Virus record (IMG/VR): IMGVR_UViG_3300023500_000003
Span: 1 to 58,768 of that record
DNA: 58,768 nt
DNA from: a virus
Lineage: Duplodnaviria > Caudoviricetes
Direction: 5' to 3' (one strand)
This document shows positions 36,091 through 54,257 of this stretch, one piece after another. The notes below the pieces were generated by a model. The model saw only the letters and a program-made list of their open reading frames with translations. It was not told the DNA's origin and made no database searches. Within the stretch, counting starts at the first letter, position 1; each line of letters begins with the position of its first letter. Made by a program: the position numbers and the translations under genes.

Positions 36091-36408
36091 ATGATGAACT
36101 GGCGAACAGATAAGCCACCCCAGGATGAAGGAACATTCATTGCAATGGTTGGGTACCCATGGCCAACAATCCTTATCTGGAATGAGTTTGATGAGGATTA
36201 TGCTTACGTTGAGATTGGCGCACAAGAATTGCAAGAATCACCGAATGCGCCTGTAAAAATGGACACATGGTTTGAAAGTGAACATTGCCGTGAAGATGAA
36301 ATTACACATTGGATGCCGATGCCCTCCCTGCCCCTATCATCTAAGATCAAGCGCAATGCGGAGAAGCTGAAAGCGAGGGATGACATGAAAAACGGCGCGA
36401 GGGCATGA
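36091..36408 (+). CDS. DUF551-family protein
   Basis: W...PP....I ... ITHWMPMPSLP. Confidence 0.75.
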   Translation: MMNWRTDKPPQDEGTFIAMVGYPWPTILIWNEFDEDYAYVEIGAQELQESPNAPVKMDTWFESEHCREDEITHWMPMPSLPLSSKIKRNAEKLKARDDMKNGARA

Positions 36409-38003
36409 ACCATGGAAAAGACTTTACCACTATGGAGCTCTTTTCGGGAGCTGGCGGCGGAATCCTCGCATCCAGAATCCTCGGACATAAGCCGCTTGTC
36501 GCAATCGAATGGGATGCCTACTGCTGCCAAGTCCTTAGAGAACGAGTTGCCGAGGGATGTTTCACTGGAATGCAAGTGCGCGAAGGGGACATCAGACTGC
36601 AAGATACATCCGAGTGGCATGGAAGAATATCTTGCATCAATGCGGGTTTCCCATGCACAGATATTAGCGTCGCCGGAAATCAGGCAGGCATTGGAGAAGG
36701 TACGCGGTCTGGACTTTACAAGGAAGTCCTTAGGATTGCCGATGAGGTACGACCTGAATACATCTTCCTGGAAAATGTCGCAGCAATCGTTACTGGAGCC
36801 AGCGGAGAATGGCTCAGAACCATCATTGGCGACCTTGCCGAGCGCGGGTATAGTGCGTGTTGGTGTACGCTCTCGGCGGCAGAAATAGGGGCGGCTCATA
36901 AACGTAATCGCTGGTGGTTGCTGGCATGGAGAGATAATGGTGAAAAGAAAATTAGCAAGTCAACGAAGATGCAAGAATTGCAGCAGGACATTTCAACCAA
37001 GAGCAGACTTGGTGAGTCAAGGGATGGGTATTTTTTGCGGCATGGAATGCTGTGCAGAATCAAAACGAGGCAGCAAATTAAGCGATTCGGAAATAGTTGC
37101 GATGTATCAAACAGGGTTGACTATGAAGCAGGTTGCGCAGAAAACTGGGATGGGTTGGAAGTCGGTACAGAGAAGGGTTCACGCTGCTGGTGTTGCAATC
37201 AACCCACACAAACGAGCAAAAGCAGAAAGGCCAAGTACGAGAGGAAGAAAGGTCTATCAGTGGGTGGCAGAAAAGAAGTATGGGAGAAGAACAAAAAAAG
37301 GGGAGTGCATTCACCATTTAAACCTGGATTGCACAGACAACGATCAGAGCAATCTGCTTATGATGGGGCTACGAGATCATGCGAAAGTACACCATCAGCT
37401 ACAGGGAGTAGTCTCAAATCTGATAAAAAGTGGGGTGATAGTGTTCAACGAGAAGAAAATGAGGTACGAGAATGCGACAGATTCGTAAATGTTTATCCGC
37501 TGCCCAAGTTGGTGCTGCCCACAAGCGAAACAGGTGGTGGCTCTTGGGCTACCCCAAACACGATGGATGTTCTGCCGCCGAAATCGGAGAAATCCCTACA
37601 CAGGGAAATGACGGTAACAAGGCCGGGCAGGAGCAGGCCAGCAAACCTCCGGGATCAGGTCAGCAATATGGACATGTGGGCTACCCCTCAAGCGAGGGAT
37701 TATCGGACAGGAGACAATCCAGAAGGCAAGCGTGCGAAAAGAAAGATAGAACAGGGTTGGACTCAGAATCTAAACGATCAGGTGAGGATGTGGCCAACGC
37801 CAAGCGCCTCGGACAATCGGGACAGAGGGAACGCAGCAACACCTGCGATACACAGAAGAATAGCGAAAGGAAAGCAAGTTATGTTATCCATGATGGTGAG
37901 CGAGACGAGCGACAGATTGAACCCCAAATTTGTGGAATGGTTGATGATGTGGCCGATAGGGTACACAATATGCAGGAAGTTCAAGAAGAAACGGAGGAAA
38001 TAA
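36405..38003 (+). CDS. C5-cytosine DNA methyltransferase, motifs I-VIII fused to W[AP]TP repeats and motif IX-like segment
   Basis: ELFSGAGG, GFPC, ENV, HKRNRWW; WATP/WATP/WPTP repeats; LNPKFVEWLMMWPIGY; no motif X in this frame. Confidence 0.88.
   Translation: MNHGKDFTTMELFSGAGGGILASRILGHKPLVAIEWDAYCCQVLRERVAEGCFTGMQVREGDIRLQDTSEWHGRISCINAGFPCTDISVAGNQAGIGEGTRSGLYKEVLRIADEVRPEYIFLENVAAIVTGASGEWLRTIIGDLAERGYSACWCTLSAAEIGAAHKRNRWWLLAWRDNGEKKISKSTKMQELQQDISTKSRLGESRDGYFLRHGMLCRIKTRQQIKRFGNSCDVSNRVDYEAGCAENWDGLEVGTEKGSRCWCCNQPTQTSKSRKAKYERKKGLSVGGRKEVWEKNKKRGVHSPFKPGLHRQRSEQSAYDGATRSCESTPSATGSSLKSDKKWGDSVQREENEVRECDRFVNVYPLPKLVLPTSETGGGSWATPNTMDVLPPKSEKSLHREMTVTRPGRSRPANLRDQVSNMDMWATPQARDYRTGDNPEGKRAKRKIEQGWTQNLNDQVRMWPTPSASDNRDRGNAATPAIHRRIAKGKQVMLSMMVSETSDRLNPKFVEWLMMWPIGYTICRKFKKKRRK
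36412..36888 (+). CDS. alternative-frame N-terminal part of MTase 'beta' polypeptide, truncated by HNH insertion
   Basis: open +1 frame inside MTase; SSWKMSQQSLL..SLATLPSAG; ends at the insertion point. Confidence 0.45.
   Translation: MEKTLPLWSSFRELAAESSHPESSDISRLSQSNGMPTAAKSLENELPRDVSLECKCAKGTSDCKIHPSGMEEYLASMRVSHAQILASPEIRQALEKVRGLDFTRKSLGLPMRYDLNTSSWKMSQQSLLEPAENGSEPSLATLPSAGIVRVGVRSRRQK
36937..37488 (+). mobile_element. HNH homing endonuclease nested in MTase
   Basis: CKNC..FC..CC, HTH, IHHLNLDCTDNDQSNL; GGAGAG RBS; flanked by recoded duplicate of motif VIII. Confidence 0.85.
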
Positions 38004-39408: not shown

Positions 39409-39534
39409 AGAACAGAATTAAAGCTATGGGCTTAAATTATACGACAGTTTATAGAATGCTATCAGATGGATATAAGCCGTTTGAGCCGCAAGCATGATAT
39501 ATTGGCGATATGGATAAAGATAGGGGATGGTTTG

Positions 39535-40227
39535 ATGAAATATGAAACAACCGGTGAAGTTTTTAAGTCCGGTCGTATAACACTAATAAACGACGACTGC
39601 ATGAATATATTAAAGCAAACACCTGACAATTACTATCACCTTTCTTGCGTCGATCCGCCGTTTGGGCTAGGCGAAAAACTAACGAGTGGGGGAACTTGGG
39701 CAGGAAAATACACATCTTCTGATAGTGCGTGGGATATTGCTCCGGGGAAGCCATATTTTGATGAGCTTAGGAGAGCGGCTGAAAATTGGATAGTATGGGG
39801 GGGAAATAATTTCACGCAGTTTTTGCCGCCAGCAAGATGTTTTTTAATATGGGACAAAGTTGCGAAAATGCAAACAATGGCAGACAGTGAACTGGCACTA
39901 ACATCTTTTGATAAAAACGCAAAAACTTTTTCTCATGTGCGTAATACAAGTGAAAGAAGAATACATTTATGCCAAAAACCTGTCAAACTCTATGAATGGC
40001 TCCTAACAAACTACGCTAACAAGGGTGATAGGATACTGGACACGCACTTGGGCTCAGGCTCAAGCGCAATCGCTGCGCATAATCTTGGGTTTGATTTCAC
40101 AGGAGTTGAGCTTGATCAAGACTATTTCAAGGCAGCAATCGCGCGGCTAGAGAATCATCAGAAACAGCCGACACTTTTTAGCCCACCTCTAACCAAGCCA
40201 GAACCCGAACAGGGGGCGCTATTATGA
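39535..40227 (+). CDS. DNA methyltransferase, N6-A/N4-C, beta class
   Basis: VDPPF, WGGN.F, IWDK, IH.CQKPV.LYEWLL, DTHLGSGSS, GVELD. Confidence 0.92.
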   Translation: MKYETTGEVFKSGRITLINDDCMNILKQTPDNYYHLSCVDPPFGLGEKLTSGGTWAGKYTSSDSAWDIAPGKPYFDELRRAAENWIVWGGNNFTQFLPPARCFLIWDKVAKMQTMADSELALTSFDKNAKTFSHVRNTSERRIHLCQKPVKLYEWLLTNYANKGDRILDTHLGSGSSAIAAHNLGFDFTGVELDQDYFKAAIARLENHQKQPTLFSPPLTKPEPEQGALL

Positions 40228-40363
40228 GCATCTGCATCAACAGCAGTATTGAATGCGAACGCGAAGCATCAACCATTGGCGGCTTGTGCCATGAATGCGA
40301 TAAGATACAGATGATGAACCCGGAAGACAGGGCTATTGCACGAGGAGGATGTCAACGAGATAT

Positions 40364-40387
40364 AAAAAAGGCGGCCCGAAGGCCGCC
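40364..40387 (-). terminator. intrinsic terminator
   Basis: minus strand GGCGGCC-TTCG-GGCCGCC-TTTTTT. Confidence 0.85.
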
Positions 40388-40427
40388 CATTGATTAAACT
40401 GACAAAATTTGCACGCTCAAGCGAATG

Positions 40428-41362: not shown

Positions 41363-41653
41363 ATGAGCCCATCTCAAAACATAGCTATCGGTCTACTCGT
41401 AGGCATCTCGATCACAGCTACTGCTGGAGGGACCTACATAGACAAGCTACACGCTGACAATCTGGCAATGCAGGACAAATGGCTAGACCAACGCTGGGAC
41501 AACAGGATGGACAGTTTACAGCTTGCTAAGTCTAGAGAATTCACGTACGACGACGTGTATGGCAAGCTCAACGCTGCTGGGTGGAGCGATGCCAGCGTTC
41601 GGAAGGCAGCGCTGATTTGTAGCATGGCAGTCTTCGGGGAGATTGACCAGTGA
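41363..41653 (+). CDS. hypothetical protein with N-terminal hydrophobic segment
   Basis: IAIGLLVGISITATAGG; follows cassette. Confidence 0.7.
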   Translation: MSPSQNIAIGLLVGISITATAGGTYIDKLHADNLAMQDKWLDQRWDNRMDSLQLAKSREFTYDDVYGKLNAAGWSDASVRKAALICSMAVFGEIDQ

Positions 41654-42183
41654 GGATTACCCAAGCAGAATTGAATGAACGCTTACATTATAATCCTGAT
41701 ACAGGAATCTTCACTTGGCTTCCTAGACCTATAAAATTATTTGCTAGCACACGTGCTGGTAAAACGTGGAATACTAGATTTGCTGATAAACCTGCCGGGA
41801 GTATTCAAAAAATAACAGGATACTTACGAATAACCATTGATAGGAAGTTATACAAGTCTCATAGACTAGCATTTCTCTATATGTTAGGGGGGTTTCCAAA
41901 AGATCAAGTAGACCACATAAACCATATCCCTGATGATAATAGATGGGAGAACTTACGTGAAGTAAGCCACCAAGAAAACCAGAGGAATCTGTCTCTACGT
42001 AGAAATAATAAATCAGGACACGTTGGCGTGAGCTGGCATAAGCAGGGAAAGAAATGGCAGTCACGTATAAGAGTATCTGGTAAATTTATTCACCTAGGAT
42101 TATTTACTGATAAAGCCGATGCAGTTAAAGCAAGACAGGAAGCCAGTATAAAATATGGATATCATGAAAACCACGGGACGTAG
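41650..42183 (+). mobile_element. HNH-AP2 homing endonuclease
   Basis: YNPDTG.FTW; HRLAFLY; VDHINH..DDNRWENLRE..ENQRN; AP2 domain SGHVGVSW..KW..RI..HLG.F. Confidence 0.92.
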
Positions 42184-43374: not shown

Positions 43375-43415
43375 ACGCGTTTTTAATTGAAACTGATGCC
43401 TTAGTATGCTTTAGG
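43375..43415 (-). promoter_or_regulatory. 41-bp repeat, putative late promoter (copy at 48314-48354)
   Basis: CCTAAAGCATACTAAGGYRTCAGTTTCAATTAAAAACGCGT, 2 mismatches between copies; both upstream of minus-strand genes. Confidence 0.65.
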
Positions 43416-43842
43416 CTTCCTCTTTTGGCTCTGTGGGTTCAACATCATACACAAACCCCACATCACCATGCCAGTCTGCAAACGCTTCATCTTCACCCTC
43501 AGAATAGGCTTCAGCGTACTCTTCGTCGCCTTGGATGTCCGCGCCTGCGTCTACTTCTAGGACAGCGTCCTTCCATTCTTGAAATACTGTAAATTCCAAG
43601 GTTTCACTATTTTCTTTGATTCCACGAGCTTTCCTAATCCTTAGCGAGATCTTCCTAGCTCTGGATATCTTGGCGCTCTGACCACGTTTCTTTTTAGCTC
43701 CTTTGATAGCAGCTTTCTTCAGCTTTATCTTTTCAGCCCCTAGGATCTTCAAGTACTTGTTCCCTACAATCTTGAAACCCTTCTTGGGAGGGAGGCGCTT
43801 TACAACTTTCCCTGCGCGGATCATCCGTTTTTTAGCTGGCAT
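43411..43842 (-). CDS. basic/acidic protein resembling T4 gp68-type prohead core protein
   Basis: IRAGKVVKR...KGFKIVG.K...EK.K.KKAA.KG.KKKR....RARK.SLR.RKARG plus acidic tail. Confidence 0.5.
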   Translation of the reverse strand: MPAKKRMIRAGKVVKRLPPKKGFKIVGNKYLKILGAEKIKLKKAAIKGAKKKRGQSAKISRARKISLRIRKARGIKENSETLEFTVFQEWKDAVLEVDAGADIQGDEEYAEAYSEGEDEAFADWHGDVGFVYDVEPTEPKEEA

Positions 43843-44233
43843 GTGCTTCTCCTGTTAACTGTAACTTCATTTCTGGCCAGGACAATTTCTGTCCGCCTTC
43901 ATACTTAACCGCGTACCCTTGGTTTACCATGATGTCGTTCAGACGTTCACCTTCCCCTACAAAGATATCAGCAAGAAGGGTTGCGCTCTTACCGGCTATC
44001 ACGTGTATCGCTATGGTGAACGTATTGTTGGCATCGGTTAGTACCGATGCTACATACTCTGCTACAAGGAGACCTGCTGCTGCTTCTTCCTCGTCCTGTG
44101 AGTTCATCCTAGGAGTATCGATGTCCCTTAATCTGACCGTCCTTGTTATCTTGATGTCGAAGCCAAGATCCATCTCGACGCTTAGTGAATTGCCGGACTC
44201 CACTTTCAATGCTGTAGCTGTAAATGTTTTCAT
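43832..44233 (-). CDS. thermonuclease (SNase) paralogue, probably inactive
   Basis: DLGF..VRL.DIDTP fold retained; DGDT->SGNS, E->R, KYGR->KSAT. Confidence 0.75.
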   Translation of the reverse strand: MKTFTATALKVESGNSLSVEMDLGFDIKITRTVRLRDIDTPRMNSQDEEEAAAGLLVAEYVASVLTDANNTFTIAIHVIAGKSATLLADIFVGEGERLNDIMVNQGYAVKYEGGQKLSWPEMKLQLTGEAHAS

Positions 44234-44243
44234 GTTTGGTTTC

Positions 44244-44708
44244 CTAGACGGCGTCCCGCGCCTTATTTAGTGTTAGTTTTCTTTCTTTCCACGGTAATTT
44301 TTTATTACCGCCGTAGGGAATGGCCTGCCCGTTTAACAACATTTCGTTGTTGATATCTACACCGTTGTGGTCAAGCAACGTGCCCATGACTCTGCCGTAC
44401 TTGCCTTTCTTGTCGAGGCGAGACTTAATGACGATTCTGCCACCTTCAGCTTTGAGTCTAGCTTTTAGCCACGCTTTAGCTTCTAGTCCATACTTCTTCT
44501 CGTCCAAGTTGCGTGTACGAGATTCGGCAGTATCAATACCTGACAAGCGGACACGAGTTTTGTATTTTACTCCGTATCCCAGGTCTAGTAGAACGTCAAT
44601 CGTATCACCGTCAACGACGCGTAGTAGATCGGCCATGTACAGATGGATATTTGCAGTAATTTTAGACTTCTTCCACAATCTATCTTTCAAAGTTTTAGGC
44701 TTAGCCAT
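44244..44708 (-). CDS. thermonuclease (SNase)
   Basis: RVVDGDTID..DLG..RVRLSGIDTAESR..GKYGRV..IN..ML..G.A..Y. Confidence 0.92.
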   Translation of the reverse strand: MAKPKTLKDRLWKKSKITANIHLYMADLLRVVDGDTIDVLLDLGYGVKYKTRVRLSGIDTAESRTRNLDEKKYGLEAKAWLKARLKAEGGRIVIKSRLDKKGKYGRVMGTLLDHNGVDINNEMLLNGQAIPYGGNKKLPWKERKLTLNKARDAV

Positions 44709-44830: not shown

Positions 44831-44959
44831 TCAGCATTCATTGAGTTCCCCAAGTTTCTTTTCTTCATTTTTCGGTTCCAAGGGCTCCGGTTCATTTAGG
44901 CTCTCCAACTTCTTTTCCTTTTCCTGCAACTTCTTTTCCGGCTCGTTCAGTGACTCCAT
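44831..44959 (-). CDS. 42-aa charged repeat peptide (not in ORF track)
   Basis: AAGGAG RBS; MESLNEPEKKLQEKEKKLESLNEPEPLEPKNEEKKLGELNEC*. Confidence 0.45.
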   Translation of the reverse strand: MESLNEPEKKLQEKEKKLESLNEPEPLEPKNEEKKLGELNEC

Positions 44960-45416
44960 GGTCATCTCCTTTTTTGTTTATCTGTTCCAGTAGCTTTAGC
45001 CACCTGTCTTCACGATCAATCATTGTGCGCCAGTTAGCCACTAGGTTCTTGTAGTTCTGCTCGCTCAACCCAATGTACAGGTTACTGTTGCGGTCAATAG
45101 CAGGAATGATACAAGAGCTACTCATCTTCTCCAAAGCTATAACGTCATACGTCTTCTTAGGATCAAGTTTCAACGCCTTGGCTTTATCAAGACAGGACTT
45201 TGAATTAGCTACTACAGCCTTGGTAGTGATTCGAGGGTAATCCCATACTACAGACATCAGCCCTTGCTTGGCAGGCATCCTGTACATGTAGTTCACCTGG
45301 GCTTGTGGTTTCGTAACTGTAGTAACTTCTAACGGTGCTTTGACAGAACCGCACCCTACTAAGCTGGGGAGTAAGAACACCCCAAGGAGTATCAAAATCG
45401 GCATGTCTCGCATCAC
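44892..45416 (-). CDS. lipoprotein, putative o-spanin
   Basis: lipobox LVGC; directly follows i-spanin-like gene. Confidence 0.65.
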   Translation of the reverse strand: MMRDMPILILLGVFLLPSLVGCGSVKAPLEVTTVTKPQAQVNYMYRMPAKQGLMSVVWDYPRITTKAVVANSKSCLDKAKALKLDPKKTYDVIALEKMSSSCIIPAIDRNSNLYIGLSEQNYKNLVANWRTMIDREDRWLKLLEQINKKGDDHGVTERAGKEVAGKGKEVGEPK

Positions 45417-45796
45417 TGAACCCCTTTCTTCAACCAGGAAGTATTCCCCTTGCTGATTGAGCGGTTGATAACTTTCAGCACTAACTCCGAATGGCGGCTG
45501 TTTCTTAGTTTGACCATATCCCTAGCCATCAGTTTGTTATTAGCTGCTGCTAGCTTCTGGTTCAGCTCTTGCTCGTACTTACCCATAGCTTCAATGCTGG
45601 CCTGGTAGTTGTTGGCTTCTGTGACCAGGCTAGCTATATTCTCAGATAACGCTCTATTGGCCGCTGCTGCTTTCTCGGTTTCGCTTACCTGTAAAGTAAG
45701 CTCTGCTTGGGCGGTAGCCAATTCCGCTTTGAAGTAGAACATTCCTGCCATACTTGACGCTGTCATAATTCCCATAACCATCACTACATAAATCAT
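45413..45796 (-). CDS. putative i-spanin
   Basis: N-terminal TM followed by coiled coil; AAGGAG RBS; in lysis cluster. Confidence 0.65.
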   Translation of the reverse strand: MIYVVMVMGIMTASSMAGMFYFKAELATAQAELTLQVSETEKAAAANRALSENIASLVTEANNYQASIEAMGKYEQELNQKLAAANNKLMARDMVKLRNSRHSELVLKVINRSISKGNTSWLKKGVQ

Positions 45797-46221
45797 CGGT
45801 ATGCTGCTCCTTCTGCTAATAGTGCGCGTTTTAATCTCTCTATACATACAGAAGAAGCTATCGAAGCTGACGCAGGTTTCCATGTACGTGCGAGGAGAGT
45901 AGCGGTAACATCATTGCCAACTTGTTGTAAATCAATTACCACGAGTTGTTTCTGGCCATTCCTGAGCTTCTGCTCGTCCAGTGCGATGCGTGCTTCCAGT
46001 TCATGGATAGTAGTCTGCTTTGTCTTCACATCATACGTCAGTTTCATGATTTCTTGCTTCAGGTAACCTTCGTCGTGCTTGCCTATCTGGAGGTAAATCA
46101 TCCCAGCTGCCCCAACTGCCAAACAGAGGTAACTCATGAATTGCAGTGAGGAGCTAGGAGAGATGTCGAACTTTTCTAAGAACCGCTGGTACACTTTAGC
46201 AAACTTTTCAAAAGTAATCAT
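45793..46221 (-). CDS. single-TM coiled-coil protein in lysis cluster
   Basis: FMSYLCLAVGAAGMIYL then coiled coil. Confidence 0.65.
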   Translation of the reverse strand: MITFEKFAKVYQRFLEKFDISPSSSLQFMSYLCLAVGAAGMIYLQIGKHDEGYLKQEIMKLTYDVKTKQTTIHELEARIALDEQKLRNGQKQLVVIDLQQVGNDVTATLLARTWKPASASIASSVCIERLKRALLAEGAAYR

Positions 46222-46244
46222 CTGTCGGCCTCCGTGGTCTCAGT

Positions 46245-46916
46245 TTAGAAATCAGTGGTCAAGGTAGATTCAATCCACTTCCTATCAAAACACCTGACAT
46301 CAGCATGGATCCAAGTTGGGCTGATTCGTACGGGTTCAAAAGAAGGTACATTTCTTTTTGACCACCCTACCTGCATCTTATCAAACTGCTTATGCACTTC
46401 TTTGACGATTCGATTGCGGTCGGAAGACTCAGGGTAATGTGGACGCAAGTCGCAGGCTTTACCCATGTGATTAGTTGACATCCTTCCGTGGGCGTTATTG
46501 TCATTCCAGCAACGGTAGCCAGAGCTGTAGCGGAACTGGTACTGTGGGAACACTGCTTGCACCATAACAGCAATCCATACGGTCACTGCACTGATGCCTG
46601 GGTATTCATAGTTGTAGTATGCTTCGCACTCCGGTTTCCCTTCACGGTAGTTGTTCTTAAACTTGCCGTTCCCGAAACCACTACAGCTTCCACAGTCACA
46701 GTCCATATCAGCAAGAGATGGTTTGTATTTGTCCCACGCCTGTTGTAATGCTAACTCTGTAGCAGGGCCTACGATTCCATCAGGGTTGCTATCCCCCATG
46801 ACATGCTGCTGGAAACCTTTAATTGCCATCGTGGTATTCTTACCTGGATAGTTATCCGGCACGCCAGCACCGAAGGCGGCTAGTCTGATTTGGAGTTCTC
46901 TAATAGTTAAAGGCAT
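46245..46916 (-). CDS. endolysin (PG-binding domain + M15A peptidase)
   Basis: LQ.RL..G..D..G..T..AIK.FQ..DGIVGP.T; SSGYRC..N..STNHMGKACD; WIHAD. Confidence 0.88.
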   Translation of the reverse strand: MPLTIRELQIRLAAFGAGVPDNYPGKNTTMAIKGFQQHVMGDSNPDGIVGPATELALQQAWDKYKPSLADMDCDCGSCSGFGNGKFKNNYREGKPECEAYYNYEYPGISAVTVWIAVMVQAVFPQYQFRYSSGYRCWNDNNAHGRMSTNHMGKACDLRPHYPESSDRNRIVKEVHKQFDKMQVGWSKRNVPSFEPVRISPTWIHADVRCFDRKWIESTLTTDF

Positions 46917-46918
46917 TC

Positions 46919-47623
46919 TTATTCTCCGAGCTTGGCTTTCAGTTTCAGCATTTCAACTTCCTGGGCATGTTCACGTCTGTCAGCAGAATCTGATTGTCTG
47001 TCAGTAACAAACATCTTCACCGTAGCAAGAACACCTGCAATAAACGCCATGACGATACCCATAACTTCTACTGAAACATTCTCGGGTTTCATGGACAAAA
47101 TATCAGTAAGTAGCGTGTTAGTCATGTAAAGCATCATAGCAATTACTGCGATGATTGCTACTCGGAACTCACCATAAATCTTGATGACGTAATCAAGGAT
47201 TCCTTGGGACGCTGTATCAATTCCGCAGGCCATGCGAGTGGCCATGGGAGTCTTCTGTATTGCGTTTGCTACTGCTTCAGGCATGGGAGGAACAGGAACA
47301 TGACCGTCTAGCATGTCTTGTACACCCTGTTCACGTTCTGCTACTTCCAGCTCTCGCGCGTCAATGGTCAGATTCTGGCTGATGGCTCTAGCCTGTACTG
47401 CCTCTGTGATAGCTTCCTTCTCAGCTAGAGCAAGAATACGCTCAGACAGGTCATCCTGCTTAGCCGTCATGTCCGCCACGTCCTGGAGTGCCTGTACTGC
47501 AATATCTTCTACTTCAGAGATAGGCATATCTGCTAAATCAGGGTGACTAGCTGTTGCTACGTCAGCACCATGCAGGTCGACTCCTTTTACTGTAGGTTCT
47601 TCGGGTTTTATAACTGTAGTCAT
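46919..47623 (-). CDS. two-TM membrane protein, putative holin
   Basis: two C-terminal TM helices after a long acidic domain; directly upstream of endolysin. Confidence 0.5.
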   Translation of the reverse strand: MTTVIKPEEPTVKGVDLHGADVATASHPDLADMPISEVEDIAVQALQDVADMTAKQDDLSERILALAEKEAITEAVQARAISQNLTIDARELEVAEREQGVQDMLDGHVPVPPMPEAVANAIQKTPMATRMACGIDTASQGILDYVIKIYGEFRVAIIAVIAMMLYMTNTLLTDILSMKPENVSVEVMGIVMAFIAGVLATVKMFVTDRQSDSADRREHAQEVEMLKLKAKLGE

Positions 47624-47901
47624 TTCGGTTCTCCGTGGGCCTTGAAGGCTCTATTTTTGATCTGTTGTTCTAACTTTTTCTTTTTCTTCTCCAATCTTTT
47701 GATCAGGTACAGGTTGAACTTCTTGTACCGGCGTTGGTTAGGAGTAAGGTCGTTCCTTGTCAATGCGACCACACGAGAATGCCTGCGTTCAATTGATTGC
47801 TCTACCCTAGTCAGTTCCGACACCAAGTAACGATCCTCGTAGGTAGCCGCGTGTGTTTGGTAGGACAGCGAAAATACAAGTATCAAGGCCGCGAACTTCA
47901 T
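47620..47901 (-). CDS. exported basic protein
   Basis: signal peptide MKFAALILVFSLSYQTHA; shares motifs with 47898-48278. Confidence 0.65.
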   Translation of the reverse strand: MKFAALILVFSLSYQTHAATYEDRYLVSELTRVEQSIERRHSRVVALTRNDLTPNQRRYKKFNLYLIKRLEKKKKKLEQQIKNRAFKAHGEPK

Positions 47902-48278
47902 AGTAGCTCTAGCTCTTGTAGTTGCGTATCTATCGATTCTTGCAATTTCAGCAGCCTACCGATTTTCTGCTCTAGTGTCCGAGCATAGACACGTTGGTTG
48001 GCTGTGAGGGTAGCCGAGTTGGATTTCAGAACTTCTAGCTCGCCATTAGCCTCTGACAGATCCATATCCACCCACCTGAGATCACTTGCAAGTCGGTACC
48101 GGTAGAAGTTTGTCAGTCGGGTGTACTCAACCAAAGCTTTTGAGGTTGCAATTCCAGAGGCTTTCTGTTCTGACAAAGATGCTGCAACTCGAGAAGCATT
48201 GGCGTATCTGTCTTCTGCGGCTACGATACCTCCAGCTATTGTAGTCGCGACACCTAGTGTCATCATAAAGTTAGCCAT
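47898..48278 (-). CDS. membrane-anchored/exported protein
   Basis: GAGGTG RBS; hydrophobic N-terminus; EDRY and LT.NQR.Y motifs shared with neighbour. Confidence 0.65.
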   Translation of the reverse strand: MANFMMTLGVATTIAGGIVAAEDRYANASRVAASLSEQKASGIATSKALVEYTRLTNFYRYRLASDLRWVDMDLSEANGELEVLKSNSATLTANQRVYARTLEQKIGRLLKLQESIDTQLQELELL

Positions 48279-48313
48279 TCTCACCTCACTACACGCGTTT
48301 CTAGTGGTCGTAC

Positions 48314-48354
48314 ACGCGTTTTTAATTGAAACTGACACCTTAGTATGCTTTAGG
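48314..48354 (-). promoter_or_regulatory. 41-bp repeat, putative late promoter
   Basis: copy of 43375-43415. Confidence 0.65.
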
Positions 48355-48366
48355 GAGCACAAGGCG

Positions 48367-48612
48367 TTAGAATTGGTTCTTCCTGTCTTGAATCAACGTA
48401 TTAAAATCATTCGCCAATATGCCGAAGTTTTTTTTATCAACGCACATATAGGGAGTACCGGTACCAGGGTTGAGCCATTGAAACGGCTTTAGTCCTAAGG
48501 GCACGTACTTCCTCTCTTGCTGCTTGACAGGCACGGGCACGTTCTCTGTTAGTGTTGCTACAGGAGAAGCGCACCCTGCAAGTATCAGTATAAGGATAAT
48601 TAAGTATGTCAC
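48367..48612 (-). CDS. small lipoprotein (possible pilotin)
   Basis: MTYLIILILILAGC lipobox; starts 5 nt after secretin stop. Confidence 0.7.
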   Translation of the reverse strand: MTYLIILILILAGCASPVATLTENVPVPVKQQERKYVPLGLKPFQWLNPGTGTPYMCVDKKNFGILANDFNTLIQDRKNQF

Positions 48613-48617
48613 TCGAG

Positions 48618-50363
48618 CTACTCCGGTAGATATAGTAATCCTTTCATGTTAGGAAATAATCTTTCAGTGGTCATCAACCTCTCACCCGTGAGCTCCTGCG
48701 GATGTGTTATAATAGTCGGGTGGATGAATATCATGAGATTGACTTTATTAGTCTTGTTCTCAGTTTGTGCAAACAGTCTCCCTGCAAAAGGGATGTCACC
48801 AAGGAGGGGAATCCCCGCTGTAGTGTCGGTATCAGAATTTTGTACCAACCCACCCAATACTAGTATCCCGCCATCCTCAGCTACTGCTATTGTTTTTAAT
48901 GACCTCTTGTTGGTTATGATATCAGAGGCTATTGTGGAAGGGGAGATGGAGCTGATTTCTTGCTCGATAATTAGTTCAATATCTCCATTTCCTAATGCAC
49001 GAGGGGTGACTACAAGAGACAGTCCCACATCTTTTCTTTCTATTGTTTGGAAAGGATTAGCACCCTGAGTGCCCCCCTGACTTCCAGTAACGAATGGAAC
49101 ATTCTGGCCTACGGAGAGTCTTGCTTCTTCATTACTCAAGACAAGCACGGACGGTACCGATAAGATGTTGGCCTCGGTATTAACTTTCAAAGCCTTCAAA
49201 ATACCGCCAAAAGATAGCGGGTTACCAGTGAACAATCCCACTACTAGACTTTTTCCAGTATCTAGGAGCTGATCTCCAATGGCAACATTCCCTGCACCGA
49301 CCCCTCCGCCAGCTGTAGGGGAGTTGTTTAGAACCCAGTCAATTCCAAACGCCAGTGAAGTATCTCCCGCTACTTCAACTATAATCATCTCTACTAGTAT
49401 CTGCTGCCTGGGTGTATCTAATTTGGATATTAGCAATCTAATCTTTTTCTTGCTGCCTTCTGGTCCGGACAGGACTATGGCGTTCCGGATCTTGTCTACC
49501 GCTATCTCCACTTCTTTGGTAAGGGAGGGCAATGTTGATAGGACGGACAGTACATTATCAGCTTTAGTATGCTCGACCAGAATAAGCTCTACTCGAGATA
49601 AGGATACCGGAGTAGGAGGAAGGTCTACCGCTTTCATCATAGTTACTGCATTTGTAACTGCTGATCTAGCACCTACCAATATTAAAGTATTGTTTACAGT
49701 ATTAGCAATCACCCTCACTTCGTTTTCTTGGTAGAGGGTTTTCACAGATAAAGCTGCTACATCTGCATTCACATTCTTCAATTGAATGACCCTAATAGTA
49801 TTAGCGGAAGACGAGTCAAGTACTTGCAGCAGTGAATACATCTTCTTAATGTTTACGCCGCTATCAGTAATGATGATCATTCCTAACCCCAATGGAGTTA
49901 TAAGTTTCCCATCACGGGATAGGAGAGGTGTGATTATAGCCGCCGCCTTTGTTGGCGAGATGTATAGTAGATTATAAATGGAGGTTACTATATTCTCGCC
50001 TGAGATACCGCCAATACCACCATTTGCTGCAATTCTCGGAACTATCTTCAGGTATCCATTATTCTCAACCGACGTCAGACGGTTCATCTCAAGCACTGAA
50101 TCTAGGAGCAAGCGAAGTTGAGGTTTGGACATACCATTAGTCACATGTACGGTTACTTCCCCTGAAACCTGCTTATCCAGTAGTACGTTCAGATTCAGTA
50201 TTTTTGACACTAGAAGGATAAAACCTTTCAACTCCACCTTGTCAACATTTAGAGTTATCAGATCTGATTTTACCACGCCGGCACCCTCTGCAGAATGCCC
50301 AAAGGTTATCAGTCCTAATAGTACTAGAAAGACTGCTAGTACTTTGGTCGCTCTGTCCATCAT
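48618..50363 (-). CDS. gspD: GspD-type outer-membrane secretin
   Basis: signal peptide; N0 domain (FI..VS..L..N.LLD..VSG.VTV); three N repeats; LDTPRQQILVE.IIVEV; NILSVPS..L.NEEA...VGQNVPF; IERKDVG..L.VTP; GIPLLGDIP..GRLF; NLMIFIHPTII. Confidence 0.93.
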   Translation of the reverse strand: MMDRATKVLAVFLVLLGLITFGHSAEGAGVVKSDLITLNVDKVELKGFILLVSKILNLNVLLDKQVSGEVTVHVTNGMSKPQLRLLLDSVLEMNRLTSVENNGYLKIVPRIAANGGIGGISGENIVTSIYNLLYISPTKAAAIITPLLSRDGKLITPLGLGMIIITDSGVNIKKMYSLLQVLDSSSANTIRVIQLKNVNADVAALSVKTLYQENEVRVIANTVNNTLILVGARSAVTNAVTMMKAVDLPPTPVSLSRVELILVEHTKADNVLSVLSTLPSLTKEVEIAVDKIRNAIVLSGPEGSKKKIRLLISKLDTPRQQILVEMIIVEVAGDTSLAFGIDWVLNNSPTAGGGVGAGNVAIGDQLLDTGKSLVVGLFTGNPLSFGGILKALKVNTEANILSVPSVLVLSNEEARLSVGQNVPFVTGSQGGTQGANPFQTIERKDVGLSLVVTPRALGNGDIELIIEQEISSISPSTIASDIITNKRSLKTIAVAEDGGILVLGGLVQNSDTDTTAGIPLLGDIPFAGRLFAQTENKTNKVNLMIFIHPTIITHPQELTGERLMTTERLFPNMKGLLYLPE

Positions 50364-50399
50364 GTGGATCTCCTTTAATATTCAATTCAGGTAGTTAGT

Positions 50400-52763
50400 T
50401 TAGAATTTCTTCATCTCGAATACGCTATTTACGAAGAAGTCACCCAGTATGCCAGTGAACCTGTACCTGGAAGTGCCATCCGACCAATACAGCGTTTGGT
50501 AATCACCGCCAATGGTGATAGCTATTTGATTGTTCCAAACAGGGGTAAACGTAGAGCCAATAGTCCCTACACGGGGCTGTACTCCCGTTCCTAGTGACCT
50601 ATGATGATAAGTAACACCCTCAGATATGGTAATAGTGCCGCCTGCTCCATCGTTGTAGCGCCACTCGAAGTTTTTGAGGCCTGCCTGAGTAAAACGGAAC
50701 TCATAGTTATCAATCAGTGTTACCACTACTTCCGCATCAGCAACAGCATATACGGAACTTCCCGAAGTACTTACAGGAACAGCCCTATTCCACACGCCGC
50801 CACTGAATATCATCAGTAGCGCATTAGTGGTATCGTACCAAGCATCGCCATTAGCAGGATTGATTGGAGCAGTAGCTTGAGTCACCGCCCCTACTCCTTG
50901 TGCGCCTGCTGCTCCTGATAAACCTTGAATACCTGCAGAGCCAGTTAATCCTTGGGGACCTGTTAAACCTATACTTCCATCTGCGCCTGGTGTACCTGAC
51001 ACTCCTTGTGTGCCTGGCACCCCTTGCGCTCCTGCGGCTCCTACTGAAACTATCGAGAGTGTGCTACCAGTAACAGTTATGTTATCCCCGGCTGAGGAAG
51101 TGAGTACAGATGTGATGACATCACCTGCTGCCACGGTCAGTACTCCTTTCGCTAGTACAAAGGTAGGAGAATTTACTGTTGCTCCGCCCCTTCCTGTGAT
51201 AGTGGATGCTACCCCATTCACGAATATGGTCACCAGTTTATTGTTCGAAGATGCTCTGATAACAACCGAAGACGAGAGAAAGTAAGTACCCGCGCTCACA
51301 ATAGTCAATGAGTTAGTTGTAGTGCTTGCTGTAATACCAGAGGATAATCCTGTGATAGTACCAAACACGAGAGTGTGAGGATATACAGAAACCACAGTGT
51401 CGCCTGAATTTGACATTGACCCATATGCTGCAGCTGCGGAGATGTTTGATCCAGTTGCTCCTACTGCACCTTGAATACCAGCGACACCTTGAACACCCTG
51501 TGATCCCGTTAACCCTGTTGGTCCAGTAGAGCCAGTAGCACCTTGAATACCCTGTGACCCCGTTGGTCCAGTAATACCTTGAATACCCTGTGATCCGGTA
51601 ATGCCCACCAAAGACGAATTACTTACCCACCCTGCTATTGCTTTAGGACCAAACATGGTAGATGTTGTAGTATTTAGATAGAAGTCTCCTAATACTCCGT
51701 CTGCTATGAGGGGATCTGCGCTCCCATTGAGCACAGTGTTTCCGGGAGTTCCAGTAGTACCTGCTAAGCCTTGAATACCGGCAGCTCCCGTTAAACCTTG
51801 AATACCGGCAGCTCCCGTTAAACCTTGAATACCGTCAGCTCCCGTTAAACCCTGAATACCGGTAGCTCCTGCTAAGCCTTGAATACCGGCAGCTCCCGTT
51901 AAACCCTGAATACCGTCAGCTCCTGTAGCACCTGTTAAACCTGTTGGTCCTGCTAAGCCTTGAACACCATCAGCACCTGTTAAACCTTGAGTGCCAGCTT
52001 GTGCTAGTGGTAACCATATAGCAGCGTCCGACGAGGGGATAGTTCCTGTGTTAGCCTGTATTGCGGAGAAGCTTCCACCCGCATGCGAAACAACGTCGAG
52101 GGTTGAGTAAGCAAGGGAAGTATTCCACACGCCTCTCAGCACTAACGTAGCTCCGTCGGTACCATCAACGCCGTCAACTCCTGCTACTCCAGCAACACCT
52201 TGAAGACCGAATGCTCCAGCCTGTCCGACAATCCCATCCTTCCCATCTTTTCCGTCTATGCCATTAGCACCAGGTTCTCCATCTTTCCCATCTTTCCCGT
52301 CGACCCCGTCAGTACCAGTTGTGCCGTCTACGCCGTCAGTACCAGTTGTTCCATCCATGCCGTCAGTACCAGCAGTACCAGTTGTACCGGATCCTGACAT
52401 AGTGACTGTAGGGAGTAAGCGGTCTGACTCCTTCTGTGCTTCGGATAGCAGAGCATCGGGAATTACAGCCTCTCTAACGACCTGGAAAGTATCTGCAGAT
52501 AAGCCCAAGGTGGTGGGGGATACCACAGCCGTGGCTCCTCCTCCTGTTGCAACTGCACCTACGGCCATCAGAATTTTAGCGTTCTCCATAACGAAGTCGT
52601 AGGCTTTACTTGCGCCAGACTTCACGCCATCGAATACAGATGTTACGAGGTTTTGCTGCACCTCAGTATGTAAATCTTTTGCACCGTCAGAAAGTTGAGA
52701 GGCTATTTCTGCCGCTTCATCTTTCAGCAAGCTGGCAGCTTTTTCTGTTATCTCATCCGTCAT
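50400..52763 (-). CDS. collagen-like fibre protein
   Basis: several (GXY)n tracts; beta-rich BclA/C1q-like domain; C-terminal domain shared with 52857-54200; hydrophobic N-terminal segment. Confidence 0.85.
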   Translation of the reverse strand: MTDEITEKAASLLKDEAAEIASQLSDGAKDLHTEVQQNLVTSVFDGVKSGASKAYDFVMENAKILMAVGAVATGGGATAVVSPTTLGLSADTFQVVREAVIPDALLSEAQKESDRLLPTVTMSGSGTTGTAGTDGMDGTTGTDGVDGTTGTDGVDGKDGKDGEPGANGIDGKDGKDGIVGQAGAFGLQGVAGVAGVDGVDGTDGATLVLRGVWNTSLAYSTLDVVSHAGGSFSAIQANTGTIPSSDAAIWLPLAQAGTQGLTGADGVQGLAGPTGLTGATGADGIQGLTGAAGIQGLAGATGIQGLTGADGIQGLTGAAGIQGLTGAAGIQGLAGTTGTPGNTVLNGSADPLIADGVLGDFYLNTTTSTMFGPKAIAGWVSNSSLVGITGSQGIQGITGPTGSQGIQGATGSTGPTGLTGSQGVQGVAGIQGAVGATGSNISAAAAYGSMSNSGDTVVSVYPHTLVFGTITGLSSGITASTTTNSLTIVSAGTYFLSSSVVIRASSNNKLVTIFVNGVASTITGRGGATVNSPTFVLAKGVLTVAAGDVITSVLTSSAGDNITVTGSTLSIVSVGAAGAQGVPGTQGVSGTPGADGSIGLTGPQGLTGSAGIQGLSGAAGAQGVGAVTQATAPINPANGDAWYDTTNALLMIFSGGVWNRAVPVSTSGSSVYAVADAEVVVTLIDNYEFRFTQAGLKNFEWRYNDGAGGTITISEGVTYHHRSLGTGVQPRVGTIGSTFTPVWNNQIAITIGGDYQTLYWSDGTSRYRFTGILGDFFVNSVFEMKKF
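51762..51990 (-). repeat. 27-nt tandem repeats encoding GIQGL[TA]GA[ADT]
   Basis: GCTCCCGTTAAACCTTGAATACCGGCA-like units repeated. Confidence 0.8.
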
Positions 52764-52856
52764 TGGGTACTCCTGTTCTGGTATAAGCGCACTCTGGTCT
52801 GGACACCCTTTCGGATGCCCAGCTTCAGAAGGCGTTTTGATGTTAGAGTACTAAGC

Positions 52857-54200
52857 TTAATATTTAGTCATCTCGAATACATTACTTACGAAGGCGTTAT
52901 TCAGTATGCCAGTAAACTTGTACCTGGAAATACCATCAGACCAATACAGAGTTTGGTAATCACCACTGATGGTGAGACTGAGGCTTATATCGAGCCAAAC
53001 AGGTACAAAAGTAGAACCAAGACTCCCCGCCCTAGCCTGTGACTGAGTTCCTGATGATATATGAGATAGTGTAACACTATCTGACAGATTGATACTGCCA
53101 CCAACCCCATCGTTGTAGCGCCACTCAAAGTACCTGTTACCAGCAGGGGTAAAGCGGAACTCGTAATTATCAATCATTACTACGTTTACGCCAGAATCAG
53201 CAATCACGTATACGGAACTTCCTGCTGATGTACTGCCTGTTACTGACCACACTGCTGCTCCCGGTGTCGCATTGGTACAGGTGTATGATATTCCTGCGGA
53301 GGTGTCAATCCAGACGGAGCCAGCAGTATAACCTAGGCTGCTGTCATCTGTTATGGCAGGAGGTACTACGGATACCAAGTTATTAGCTATTGACGCGCTC
53401 GTTACGTTCTGGCTAGGGATTTCAGTTAATGACATGTAGGCGCCGTAGACGTCCACGTCGACCTCACTAAAAGCAGAAGATATTATCAGAGTGATAACAT
53501 CGCCAGCTGACAAACTTAGATGCGCTGTGGCAGAGCAAGCGTTAGGGTTATTTGCAATCGCTGAAGTCACTGCGATTACCGTGGATGCGATACCATTAAC
53601 ATGAAGGGTGGCTGTTTTGATATTGGACAGTGCACGGAAGGATGCTCCCAGAGATACCGTATAGTTGCCTGAACGAGCGACGGTCATGCTATTTGTTGCG
53701 GTTGCTACTATGATACCAACGGCGGTTCCTGGAGCGGTATCGAATTCAGCAGTATAAGGGAAAACTACGTTTGTGATTCCAGTAGAGTCCGACACTGATC
53801 CGAAGTGTAGTGCTTGTGCTACTGCTACCGGGCCTCCCGCTGAGATACTCCATACAGCAGCACCAACAGAATTATCCAAGCAGACGTAGCTAGTATCTGT
53901 GGCTGTATCTACCCACGTGGAGCCTACTTCATATAGAGAGGCGGCGTCGTCTGTGATTGCTGGGGCTACGGTAGCCACCATGTTTGATTTCACTGCGTCT
54001 GAGATGCGAACCCAGTGAGCGTCTGTACCCACTGCTGGAATAATTGAGATTCCATTATTGAGATATCCAGCACTTACTTCAAAACGGAACAGTGCGTCCA
54101 GCTCAGCGATGTGGGCTAATTCGTTTGGGCGGCCTACTAGGGCTGCGGCAACAATAGTTGTGATGTTTAGATTGCTTATTTGGTTCTGGTTGAGGCTCAT
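52857..54200 (-). CDS. virion fibre/decoration protein
   Basis: NQNQI..LVGRPNE N-terminal domain; two P.ITDD...Y..GS.W.DT...Y.C....GAAVW repeats; AGGAGG RBS. Confidence 0.75.
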   Translation of the reverse strand: MSLNQNQISNLNITTIVAAALVGRPNELAHIAELDALFRFEVSAGYLNNGISIIPAVGTDAHWVRISDAVKSNMVATVAPAITDDAASLYEVGSTWVDTATDTSYVCLDNSVGAAVWSISAGGPVAVAQALHFGSVSDSTGITNVVFPYTAEFDTAPGTAVGIIVATATNSMTVARSGNYTVSLGASFRALSNIKTATLHVNGIASTVIAVTSAIANNPNACSATAHLSLSAGDVITLIISSAFSEVDVDVYGAYMSLTEIPSQNVTSASIANNLVSVVPPAITDDSSLGYTAGSVWIDTSAGISYTCTNATPGAAVWSVTGSTSAGSSVYVIADSGVNVVMIDNYEFRFTPAGNRYFEWRYNDGVGGSINLSDSVTLSHISSGTQSQARAGSLGSTFVPVWLDISLSLTISGDYQTLYWSDGISRYKFTGILNNAFVSNVFEMTKY

Positions 54201-54257
54201 TTCATACCCTCCTGAAGGGATAGAAGAGGGGCTTTTCAACCCCTCTTCCTAGATAGT
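54201..54257 (-). promoter_or_regulatory. conserved intergenic hairpin + RBS (paralogue at 57131-57187)
   Basis: ACTATCTAGG-hairpin-TATCCCTT.AGGAGGGTATGAA in both; stem sequences differ but pairing is kept. Confidence 0.6.

Follow-up and report, generated by a model that had tools for sequence, protein, structure and literature searches.

A full-length GspD-lineage secretin and an adjoining orphan lipoprotein encoded between the tail-fiber and lysis genes of a tailed phage

Virus-encoded secretins are textbook components of filamentous phages, in which the channel is the exit of the virion; the secretin pIV works there with the Zot-like ATPase pI to extrude virions. In the GspD secretins of bacterial type II secretion systems (T2SSs), such as XcpQ, PulD, and EpsD, a signal peptide is followed by the N0, N1, N2, and N3 domains, the barrel, and the S-domain. 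Here, we describe a secretin gene with the same order of parts, up to the start of the S-domain, on the linear IMG/VR virus record IMGVR_UViG_3300023500_000003 (58.8 kb). The window, as we call this whole 58,768-nucleotide (nt) fragment, is ~41% complete by CheckV, and what we report on missing partner genes applies to that ~41% of the genome. A small lipoprotein gene follows the secretin gene on the same strand, and the two are a genuine phage gene pair. Judging from the comparisons below, a GspD-lineage secretin in a tailed phage appears to be new among virus-encoded secretins, the earlier ones coming from filamentous phages only.

A preliminary description of this DNA had proposed an intact 581-amino-acid (aa) secretin with a signal peptide, N0 to N3 domains, a barrel, a short tail, and a good ribosome-binding site (RBS), all of which is borne out by the open reading frame (ORF), by Pfam, by the AlphaFold2 (AF2) model, and by an AAGGAG box. 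The Pfam Secretin family (PF00263) matches residues 391 to 552 with an E value of 1.1e-44 (152.4 bits against a cut-off of 27.5), and a six-frame scan recovers it at 48708-49193 (155.6 bits). Secretin_N matches in two stretches (3.4e-17, 62.9 bits), and the GspD N0 family (PF21305) matches residues 38 to 107 (1.7e-12, 47.4 bits). Residues 33 to 554 align with XcpQ of Pseudomonas aeruginosa (5WLN; E value, 1.3e-68). The AF2 model, computed from a 50-row alignment of the phage protein and 49 homologs hand-picked from 119 non-self matches, has a mean predicted local distance difference test (pLDDT) score of 74; helix 2-22 in the signal-peptide region leads into a disordered linker, and the barrel strands (398 to 552), together with helix 528-531, precede a short helix at 555 to 569. 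In a Foldseek search that yielded 61 PDB matches at an E value of ≤0.001, ranks 1 to 8 are all T2SS secretins (PulD, GspD, EpsD, ExeD, and XcpQ; 1e-31 to 3e-23), with low monomer TM-scores (0.3) that reflect a domain arrangement differing from the assembled state. The invariant residues flanking the gate and the PLLGDIP motif are retained, and the tail aligns with the start of the S-domain of GspD from enterotoxigenic Escherichia coli. With the NCBIfam GspD equivalog model TIGR02517, the protein scores 350.7 bits against a cut-off of 351.35, falling short by 0.65 bit, and the other secretin models score far lower (PilQ, 146.6; MshL, 110.8; SctC, 103.1). Since the score lies under the TIGR02517 cut-off, we file the protein, on its sequence, as a member of the GspD lineage rather than as a functional GspD equivalog.

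The filamentous phage secretin pIV (f1/M13 gene IV, PHROG 1012) is likewise a virus-encoded protein taken over from cellular systems, and its barrel is homologous to that of the phage protein described here (PHROG match, 2e-79; 37.9% identity over phage residues 294 to 552). The f1 pIV structure (7OFH) aligns over phage residues 287 to 552 only, and pIV-type ORFs of 394 to 507 aa on 6- to 19-kb contigs match only from residue ~225-294 onward. The N-terminal region of pIV consists of N0 and N3 only, whereas the phage secretin adds N1 and N2, and pIV-like proteins form a separate clade (99%). The genomic settings also differ: pIV has a Zot-like ATPase partner in a small single-stranded DNA genome, while the window has no PF05707 match and belongs to a terminase-encoding double-stranded DNA phage. 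An icosahedral tailed virion, moreover, should be unable to pass through a secretin.

In concept, although not in family, the nearest precedent comes from T4-like marine phages: Melnitz and Pelagibacter myophages encode an orphan curli pore, CsgG/CsgF, for which the authors, in the text available from PMC9004378, hypothesize a gated pore that times lysis. As far as that text goes, both cases concern a tailed lytic phage carrying only the outer membrane channel of a host secretion system. However, the curli family is unrelated to the secretins, and those phages infect a host without the system, while Zetaproteobacteria (see below), the likely hosts in our case, possess a T2SS of their own; the function of both pores is hypothetical.

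In a tblastn search of 50,697 phage records, 68 records matched, and among the matches listed (the best 40 and 35 spread rows), all are filamentous phages of 4 to 13 kb or mislabelled bacterial contigs. The secretin matches named "Acinetobacter phage MD-2021a" were rejected as bacterial chromosome contigs with the host T2SS operon; these records (CAKLQH020000023.1 and CAKLQF020000004.1/26.1) carry hemC/hemD, trpE, tRNAs, the T2SS operon, and hofQ. In IMG/VR, a scan limited to a few peptide patterns gave 9 loci with the protein query and 50 with the profile, all on contigs of ≤19.3 kb. The pIV-like ORFs extracted from them measure 394 to 507 aa apart from one, L092 (IMGVR_UViG_3300021370_000063, 12.4 kb), which is the sole full-length GspD-like match there (638 aa; query residues 34 to 556, 31% identity). 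L092 groups with cellular GspDs and may thus represent bacterial DNA misfiled among viruses. The main texts of the literature searched yielded no tailed-phage secretin, the "GspD" of PMC7826561 being the name of a phage, and secretin co-option is noted for the type III secretion system and filamentous phages only in the available part of PMC6668835. The expectation that nothing comparable had been described thus stands for the phage records, IMG/VR, and the literature searched.

The phage nature of the DNA is clear. The preliminary description spoke of a terminase-encoding phage, which holds: across 89% of its length, the product of ORF 1270-3189 shares 34% identity with annotated large terminases from Rhizobium phages of 150 to 207 kb (E value, 3e-92), and the window belongs to a terminase-encoding double-stranded DNA tailed phage. 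Its plus strand is taken up over 43 kb by a phage replication module with Dda-like, DnaB-like, and other helicases, a primase, a sliding clamp, a clamp loader, a family-A DNA polymerase, SSB, a UvsX-like recombinase, and SbcCD; the same block encodes an RNA-polymerase-beta-like protein and several DNA methyltransferases. In run X1, a hydrothermal vent metagenome, an independently assembled Logan contig (11,133 nt) spans 45500-51789 with zero differences at a depth of ~64 and ends only within the collagen repeats of the upstream fiber gene; X1 may be the source sample, so that this is support from a second assembler rather than from a second sample. The secretin, in identical form, the lipoprotein, and a neighboring 126-aa protein are also recorded together on a 40,338-nt Joint Genome Institute contig, which may come from the same or a sister sample. 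In composition, the secretin gene lies within the range of the phage and is not anomalous: its GC content at third codon positions is 0.41 (0.48 ± 0.05 for 34 genes), its codon adaptation index of 0.768 (0.794 ± 0.017) is akin to that of the fiber genes, and its tetranucleotide z score is 0.9 to 1.6. With both junctions spanned by a contig and an unremarkable composition, neither a chimera nor a recent insertion is likely. The two outcomes that the preliminary description had named as fatal to its proposal, a chimeric assembly and a near-identical host gspD, did not materialize, as the second assembler's contig crosses both junctions without differences and the best relative found anywhere is 30 to 35% identical.

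Run X2, a microbial mat metagenome, contains at a depth of ~2 fragments that are 90 to 99% identical to the lysis and fiber genes (45500-53500), which indicates that a close relative of the phage exists in a second study. No X2 contig covers 48437-50839 or joins across it, and a depth of ~2 says nothing on the absence of the secretin there. Queries with the endolysin, the DNA polymerase, and a 958-aa fiber protein retrieved no relatives of the phage from IMG/VR.

The nearest relatives of the secretin are 30 to 35% identical at near-full coverage, and none is closer among 5.8 billion protein clusters. The 11 best matches in GTDB species genomes are all from Zetaproteobacteria (Ghiorsea and Mariprofundus; 30 to 33% identity). 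In a first tree of 57 rows (30 of the 119 cellular matches, 26 of 59 small viral loci, and the phage protein), a split with 99% support separates the phage protein and the cellular GspDs from the pIV-like secretins, and the phage protein is sister (96%) to 11 GspDs, one of them named Mariprofundus erugo, with a terminal branch of 2.62 against a median of 0.17 (~15 times). In a second, broader tree, it branches basally among the cellular GspDs (branch length, 3.38), and the pIV-like outgroup is split off at 91%. When the phage protein is constrained to a clade with Zetaproteobacteria, the likelihood is 11.2 lnL units above that of the free quick search (approximately unbiased test, P = 0.89). 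On these trees, we place the protein within cellular GspD, the exact sister group being unstable; an origin in a Zetaproteobacterial lineage is most likely, as the placement with the best support, although it is not proven. The habitats given for X1 (vent) and X2 (mat) agree with such an origin. At the DNA level, the whole window was compared in three pieces with 133 Zetaproteobacterial genomes: the secretin core matched in 8 genomes (68 to 74% over ~95 to 120 nt), with 2 shorter matches, and there was neither a CRISPR spacer nor a prophage, the remaining short matches having chance E values. A GC-rich hairpin at 40362-40395, considered as a host signal, was rejected as a generic hairpin that matches dozens of Zetaproteobacterial genomes.

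The way in which the phage copy differs from 49 aligned cellular homologs, with which all the following lengths and columns were compared, is informative about the selection acting on it. Its total length is 581 aa against a homolog median of 664, but its core blocks have exactly the canonical lengths: 74 residues for N0 (the same in all 49), 58 for N1, and 42, 27, and 69 for the barrel blocks. In contrast, every one of the 49 homologs exceeds the phage protein in the length of five variable segments, namely, the N0-N1 linker (15 residues; minimum, 18), N3 (84; minimum, 87), the 335-384 segment (50; minimum, 55; median, 66), the gate-1 loop (20; minimum, 21), and the tail (29; minimum, 49; median, 65), which retains the first S-domain helix and the G-x-x-x-x-P motif. 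The N2 segment is also short (68 against a median of 74), though not below every homolog. Because the core lengths are canonical and the trimming is restricted to variable segments, the sequence fits a streamlined protein under selection rather than a decaying one, and 48 of the 55 columns that are invariant among the homologs are retained.

The divergence is unevenly distributed. When identity between the phage protein and the homologs is divided by identity among the homologs, the ratio is 0.83 for the barrel, 0.66 for N2, 0.61 for N3, 0.50 for N0, and 0.46 for N1, whereas in cellular GspDs N0 is as conserved as the barrel (0.62 versus 0.61). N0 and N1 thus appear to have diverged about twice as much as expected, with the barrel and gate conserved. 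N0 is established to dock on the HR domain of GspC (cf. the title of 6HCG). The ratios therefore indicate, as far as alignments can, a channel under near-normal constraint from which the constraint imposed on N0 and N1 by the T2SS platform is gone or changed.

This pattern bears on the idea that the phage secretin acts like the product of an auxiliary gene, docking on the inner membrane platform of the host T2SS to sustain or redirect secretion during infection, for instance, of phage periplasmic proteins or exopolymer. The complete N0-N1-N2-N3 set, at canonical lengths and with confident folds where inovirus pIV matches only from about residue 287, would suit such a hijack, as would the complete gspD-gspE operons of the likely host lineage and the 93-aa secreted protein encoded two genes downstream. 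However, the docking domains N0 and N1 are precisely the parts least conserved relative to cellular GspDs, and the score stays just under that of GspD equivalogs. Secretins are generally stable rather than turnover-limited components, and no candidate T2SS substrate was identified. We regard this scenario as improbable. Since N0 and N1 are the most diverged parts, the pattern also argues against a protein that titrates the host platform, and it is still compatible with either a poison subunit or a stand-alone channel.

An even poorer candidate, to be considered very improbable, is a passenger or an artefact, i.e., a functionless captured gene drifting toward loss or a misassembly. The very long terminal branch in both trees, the retention of fewer conserved columns than in any homolog, the single lineage, and the fact that the junction-supporting sample X1 may be the source sample are what one would expect from it. 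Set against them are an intact frame of 581 codons with the invariant positions largely kept and no indels in core blocks, an ameliorated codon usage, phage genes on both flanks that the second assembler's contig spans at uniform depth, and the presence of the same three genes on the 40,338-nt contig.

The secretin appears to be alone among T2SS components. Probes for GspE, GspF, and GspG, the first two verified as T2SSE and T2SSF, gave no tblastn match in the window, and six-frame scans with hidden Markov models gave none for Zot (PF05707), T2SSC, or PulS_OutS (PF09691); the T2SSE scan returned only P-loop noise of 10 to 12 bits (cut-off, 24.9 bits). The earlier statement that no other gsp, pil, or Zot-like gene is present accordingly holds for the window. 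A T2SS gspD usually has a different neighborhood: gspE lies directly downstream in 62 of the 80 nearest metagenomic relatives, most of those without a gspE match ending just past the secretin, and gspF is there as well in 39 of the 80, while gspE is adjacent in all 11 Zetaproteobacterial relatives. The phage copy thus differs from cellular GspD in being carried by a tailed phage without gspC, gspE, gspF, or gspG in the 58.8-kb window and in having a novel lipoprotein gene at the 3′ position that gspE occupies in its cellular relatives.

This second gene begins 5 nt after the secretin stop codon (GTG at 48612; stop TAG at 48618-48620), as first described, and its GGAG box (48621-48624) sits within the last codons of the secretin. 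The N terminus of the product, MTYLIILILILAGC, contains, as read by eye, an LAGC lipobox with Ala at position +2 behind a short signal peptide whose n-region is without a basic residue. The mature protein of 68 aa is Pro rich in its N-terminal half (Pro makes up 7 of the first 42 residues), contains a single Cys, and has a helical segment toward its C terminus. It matches no family in Pfam, NCBIfam, or PHROGs. A word-indexed search of 5.8 billion clusters returned only the protein itself, and HMMER against 1.84 billion representatives returned its own cluster and two marginal matches (E value, ~1e-4), which are short stretches within proteins of 190 and 1,703 aa. Among the 149 cellular loci with enough downstream sequence, a permissive lipobox regular expression picked out ORFs near the gspD stop in 7; these look spurious, being Arg/Cys rich without a hydrophobic core, and were rejected. 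Since no convincing lipoprotein gene follows cellular gspD, the pairing of secretin and lipoprotein is, on this comparison, apparently specific to the phage.

Judged by its sequence, the lipoprotein would resemble a pilotin and an outer membrane spanin (o-spanin) about equally well. With pilotins (PulS/OutS, AspS, and MxiM) it shares its small size, a lipobox with a residue other than Asp at +2, and a gene beside that of a secretin; on the other hand, it has no PulS/OutS match, and the phage secretin is without the long C-terminal extension of its homologs. With o-spanins (Rz1 and LysC) it shares Pro richness, one Cys, and a location beside lysis genes, but its gene precedes that of a transmembrane (TM)/coiled-coil protein, which is an atypical order. 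The named leads from the Atlas were LysC (17%) and Phage_T4_Spanin (15%) at a score of 0.90, with a recognition value of 2108, below the mark of 2300. A complex prediction for the secretin (residues 25 to 581) and the mature lipoprotein scored 0.00 (mark, 0.32), the fold of the lipoprotein itself being uncertain, and weighs neither for nor against an interaction.

It is possible, though we think it unlikely, that the two genes are functionally unlinked, i.e., that the secretin acts alone and the lipoprotein is an o-spanin-like or other lysis or exclusion lipoprotein, which may pair with the 126-aa TM/coiled-coil protein. The Pro content, the single Cys and the helical segment, the Atlas leads together with the missing PulS/OutS match, the N-terminal TM segment and coiled coil of the next gene product, and the lack of a convincing small lipoprotein gene after cellular gspD all lend themselves to this explanation. 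Known two-component spanins have the opposite gene order to the lipoprotein-then-TM/coiled-coil order found here, however, and the putative 126-aa partner lies behind an 88-nt spacer with a repeated 41-nt element. Moreover, an Rz-like inner membrane spanin (i-spanin) followed by a lipoprotein is already present downstream, the Atlas recognition value is below its mark, and the 5-nt gap and the RBS within the 3′ end of the secretin argue for translation coupled to that of the secretin.

The surroundings of the pair (Table 1) agree with the original placement of the secretin, co-oriented between a collagen-like fiber gene and the lysis genes: the minus-strand block consists of four fiber-like genes, one of them with collagen repeats, then the secretin and lipoprotein genes, and then the lysis genes. 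The lysis block encodes, in order, the 126-aa TM/coiled-coil protein, the 93-aa secreted protein, a 234-aa two-TM holin candidate, a PG_binding_1 endolysin (46245-46916), a 142-aa TM protein, the Rz-like i-spanin (phrog_739, 3.8e-5), and a 174-aa lipoprotein. The 41-nt element has a second copy at 43375-43415 (39 of 41 positions identical); the copies sit 36 to 59 nt upstream of minus-strand ORF starts and flank the lysis/nuclease block; its 21-nt core has 2 matches where 0.01 would be expected by chance. It is a candidate promoter or regulatory box, and if so, the secretin and lipoprotein genes would close the fiber transcription unit, and the lysis genes would form the next one. The 36-nt spacer between the fiber and secretin genes holds no terminator-like site, and consensus scans for promoters and terminators gave no excess over shuffled sequences. 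The motif AAACGCGTGTA occurs only twice, both times in spacer sequence.

Table 1. Features of the secretin-lipoprotein locus and its flanks (positions in the window)
Feature	Coordinates	Strand	Basis
Secretin gene, 581 aa, GspD lineage	48618..50363	-	ORF; stop TAG 48618-48620; Pfam, NCBIfam, XcpQ alignment, Foldseek
AAGGAG RBS, 6 nt 5′ of secretin ATG, within the 36-nt post-fiber spacer	50370..50375	-	Sequence read
Signal peptide, residues 1-24: basic n-region, hydrophobic core, GHS-A	50292..50363	-	Read by eye
N0 domain, residues 36-109	50037..50258	-	PF21305; AF2 pLDDT 83-92
N1 (125-182), N2 (189-246), N3 (258-334) ring-building domains	49362..49991	-	AF2 alpha/beta, Secretin_N, XcpQ alignment
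Gly-rich variable segment, residues 335-384	49212..49361	-	AF2 pLDDT 27-38
Secretin barrel, gate loops, and PLLGDIPFAGRLF loop, residues 385-552	48708..49211	-	Pfam Secretin
Short C-terminal tail (S-domain remnant), residues 553-581: helix and GLLYLPE motif	48621..48707	-	AF2 helices 555-558, 561-569
Orphan lipoprotein gene, 81 aa, GTG start	48367..48612	-	ORF; GGAG RBS 8 nt upstream
41-nt element in the 88-nt spacer 3′ of the lipoprotein gene (candidate promoter or regulatory box)	48314..48354	-	36 nt upstream of next ATG (48278)
Collagen-repeat tail-fiber gene, 787 aa, upstream of secretin	50400..52763	-	Pfam Collagen 2.7e-42; PHROG tail fiber 1e-61
Downstream lysis block	44892..48278	-	Holin and o-spanin roles suggested by architecture

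Our favored reading, held with somewhat less than even confidence, is a domesticated stand-alone outer membrane channel that is made late, assembles with the aid of the lipoprotein, and exerts its effect on the envelope as infection ends. The secretin would have been captured long ago from a cellular T2SS, most likely of a Zetaproteobacterial lineage, and since then streamlined and fast diverged in the phage. It is probably transcribed late with the tail-fiber genes and, once exported by Sec, would assemble in the outer membrane of the host into a gated multimer of the usual kind, functioning there with no other T2SS component. Normal constraint would still act on the pore and gate, while N0 and N1, freed from the T2SS platform, would have either a phage-specific partner or none at all. 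The lipoprotein, its translation being coupled to that of the secretin, would be a likely helper for assembly or anchoring in the outer membrane. The intact genes, the domains, the lineage, the pattern of conservation, the synteny, the assembly support, and the lack of partner genes in the window are observed; cotranscription late in infection, multimerization, an outer membrane location, a partnership with the lipoprotein, and the physiological role are inferred. The most probable role of such a channel may be to condition or permeabilize the outer membrane just before or during lysis by holin, endolysin, and spanin. According to the part of PMC5596341 available, mislocalized secretins permeabilize the inner membrane and induce the Psp response; we speculate that this could be a conceivable route to holin triggering.

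Several observations weigh against this reading of a domesticated channel. The phage already has lysis genes of its own, from the holin candidate and the endolysin to the Rz-like i-spanin and a further lipoprotein, so that another breaker of the outer membrane is not obviously needed, and this complete lysis set weakens the case for a secretin required for lysis. The conserved gate, for its part, predicts a channel that would stay closed absent an opener. Only 90 of the 130 columns that are at least 90% conserved (0.69) are retained, below every homolog (minimum, 0.82; leave-one-out mean, 0.96), from which some functional relaxation is possible. The only named Atlas leads of the lipoprotein are spanin families, and it could be unrelated to the secretin. 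The 59% of the genome that is unseen could hold partner genes. Finally, the placement with Zetaproteobacteria is unstable, given the basal position in the free second tree, and the phage stands as one metagenomic lineage, without a relative to set beside it.

The position of the secretin gene directly after the tail-fiber (host recognition) genes, 36 nt apart, invites a different explanation, namely, superinfection exclusion or receptor remodeling. The phage subunit would coassemble with or displace the host T2SS or type IV pilus secretin, yielding a nonfunctional or receptor-masked channel and thereby shielding the infected cell, or the progeny, against phages for which that machine is the receptor; the lipoprotein would then be like the receptor-blocking lipoproteins that some phages have beside their fiber genes. 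The llp gene of T5 and the cor genes adjoin receptor-binding or fiber genes, and the pIV proteins of f1 and IKe form mixed multimers. A conserved multimer-forming barrel next to diverged platform-docking N0 and N1 domains is the look expected of a poison subunit, and the variable loops are trimmed. In the available text of the sources, T2SS secretins or T2SSs are documented as phage receptors or requirements, for EpsD and phage VP2 (PMC8101328) and for phiAP1 in Ralstonia (PMC9765573). Nevertheless, the nearest GspD is only 30 to 35% identical overall and ~51% identical in the barrel, which makes mixed multimers doubtful, and exclusion genes are usually early, whereas the secretin seems to belong to a late structural unit. 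On balance, we think exclusion is not the likely role, giving it about the same weight as a pair of unlinked genes.

Other features of the window are of interest in their own right. The fiber genes 50400-52763 and 52857-54239 (minus strand) share a similar C-terminal domain of ~115 aa (SSVY...NYEFRFT...FEWRYNDG...YWSDG.SRY.FTGIL...FEM.K.), and three fiber genes have common phrog_33012 repeats, so that the region looks like a fiber paralog cassette. The lysis region (45413-48278, minus strand) encodes three proteins with an N-terminal TM segment and a coiled coil (126, 142, and ~127 aa) together with lipoproteins of 81 and 174 aa. One alone of the three matches an Rz-like PHROG convincingly. 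The 126-aa protein has no similarity to the ~127-aa Rz-like one and is an orphan with only generic helical Atlas matches. After the lysis cassette, ORF 44244-44708 (minus strand) has weak thermonuclease/EcnA-like matches (2.2e-11, below cut-off), and the adjoining ORF 43832-44233 (minus strand) has no family match and a resemblance to SNase by eye only; neither product has an obvious signal peptide. The hairpin at 40362-40395 (GGCGGCC-CGAA-GGCCGCC with an A-run) lies between convergent blocks and is probably a bidirectional terminator. On the plus strand, the 927-aa product of 29700-32483 matches the PHROG RNA polymerase beta families phrog_25354 (3.2e-72) and phrog_2987 (2.4e-20), the kind of families found in multisubunit RNA polymerases of jumbo phages; the phage, of ~140 kb, may thus encode its own RNA polymerase. 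Three DNA methyltransferases (one of C5 type, one of N6/N4 type, and one matching phrog_67) and an HNH endonuclease, encoded at 5367-6404, 36405-38003, 39466-40227, and 41650-42183 (plus strand), suggest a heavy investment in antirestriction. The window contains no tRNA and no Rfam family that we could find.

Overall, the preliminary description is partly supported: its identification of the secretin and its claim of novelty are borne out, and its proposals on function are those weighed above. We tentatively propose, as a plausible account that still falls short of being probable, that a lineage of large tailed phages, probably infecting iron-oxidizing Zetaproteobacteria, has domesticated a T2SS secretin into a self-contained outer membrane gate with a de novo lipoprotein partner and retooled docking domains, which would serve to control egress and lysis or to block secretin-dependent superinfection. 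If true, these phages would be the first nonfilamentous viruses to use a secretin, and the gate would be a new kind of phage envelope device. A full-length GspD-type secretin in a lytic tailed phage, with no virion-exit rationale, would suggest that lytic infection employs a giant gated pore in a way not yet described, be it conditioning of the outer membrane, timing of lysis, or sabotage of a receptor machine. It would also be a naturally minimized secretin of 581 aa, its loops trimmed and its S-domain short, perhaps with a new lipoprotein as its helper, and hence a useful subject for studies of gating and of assembly, whether pilotin independent or dependent on a novel pilotin. It would further offer a first molecular handle on the interplay of phages and hosts in vent iron-mat communities.

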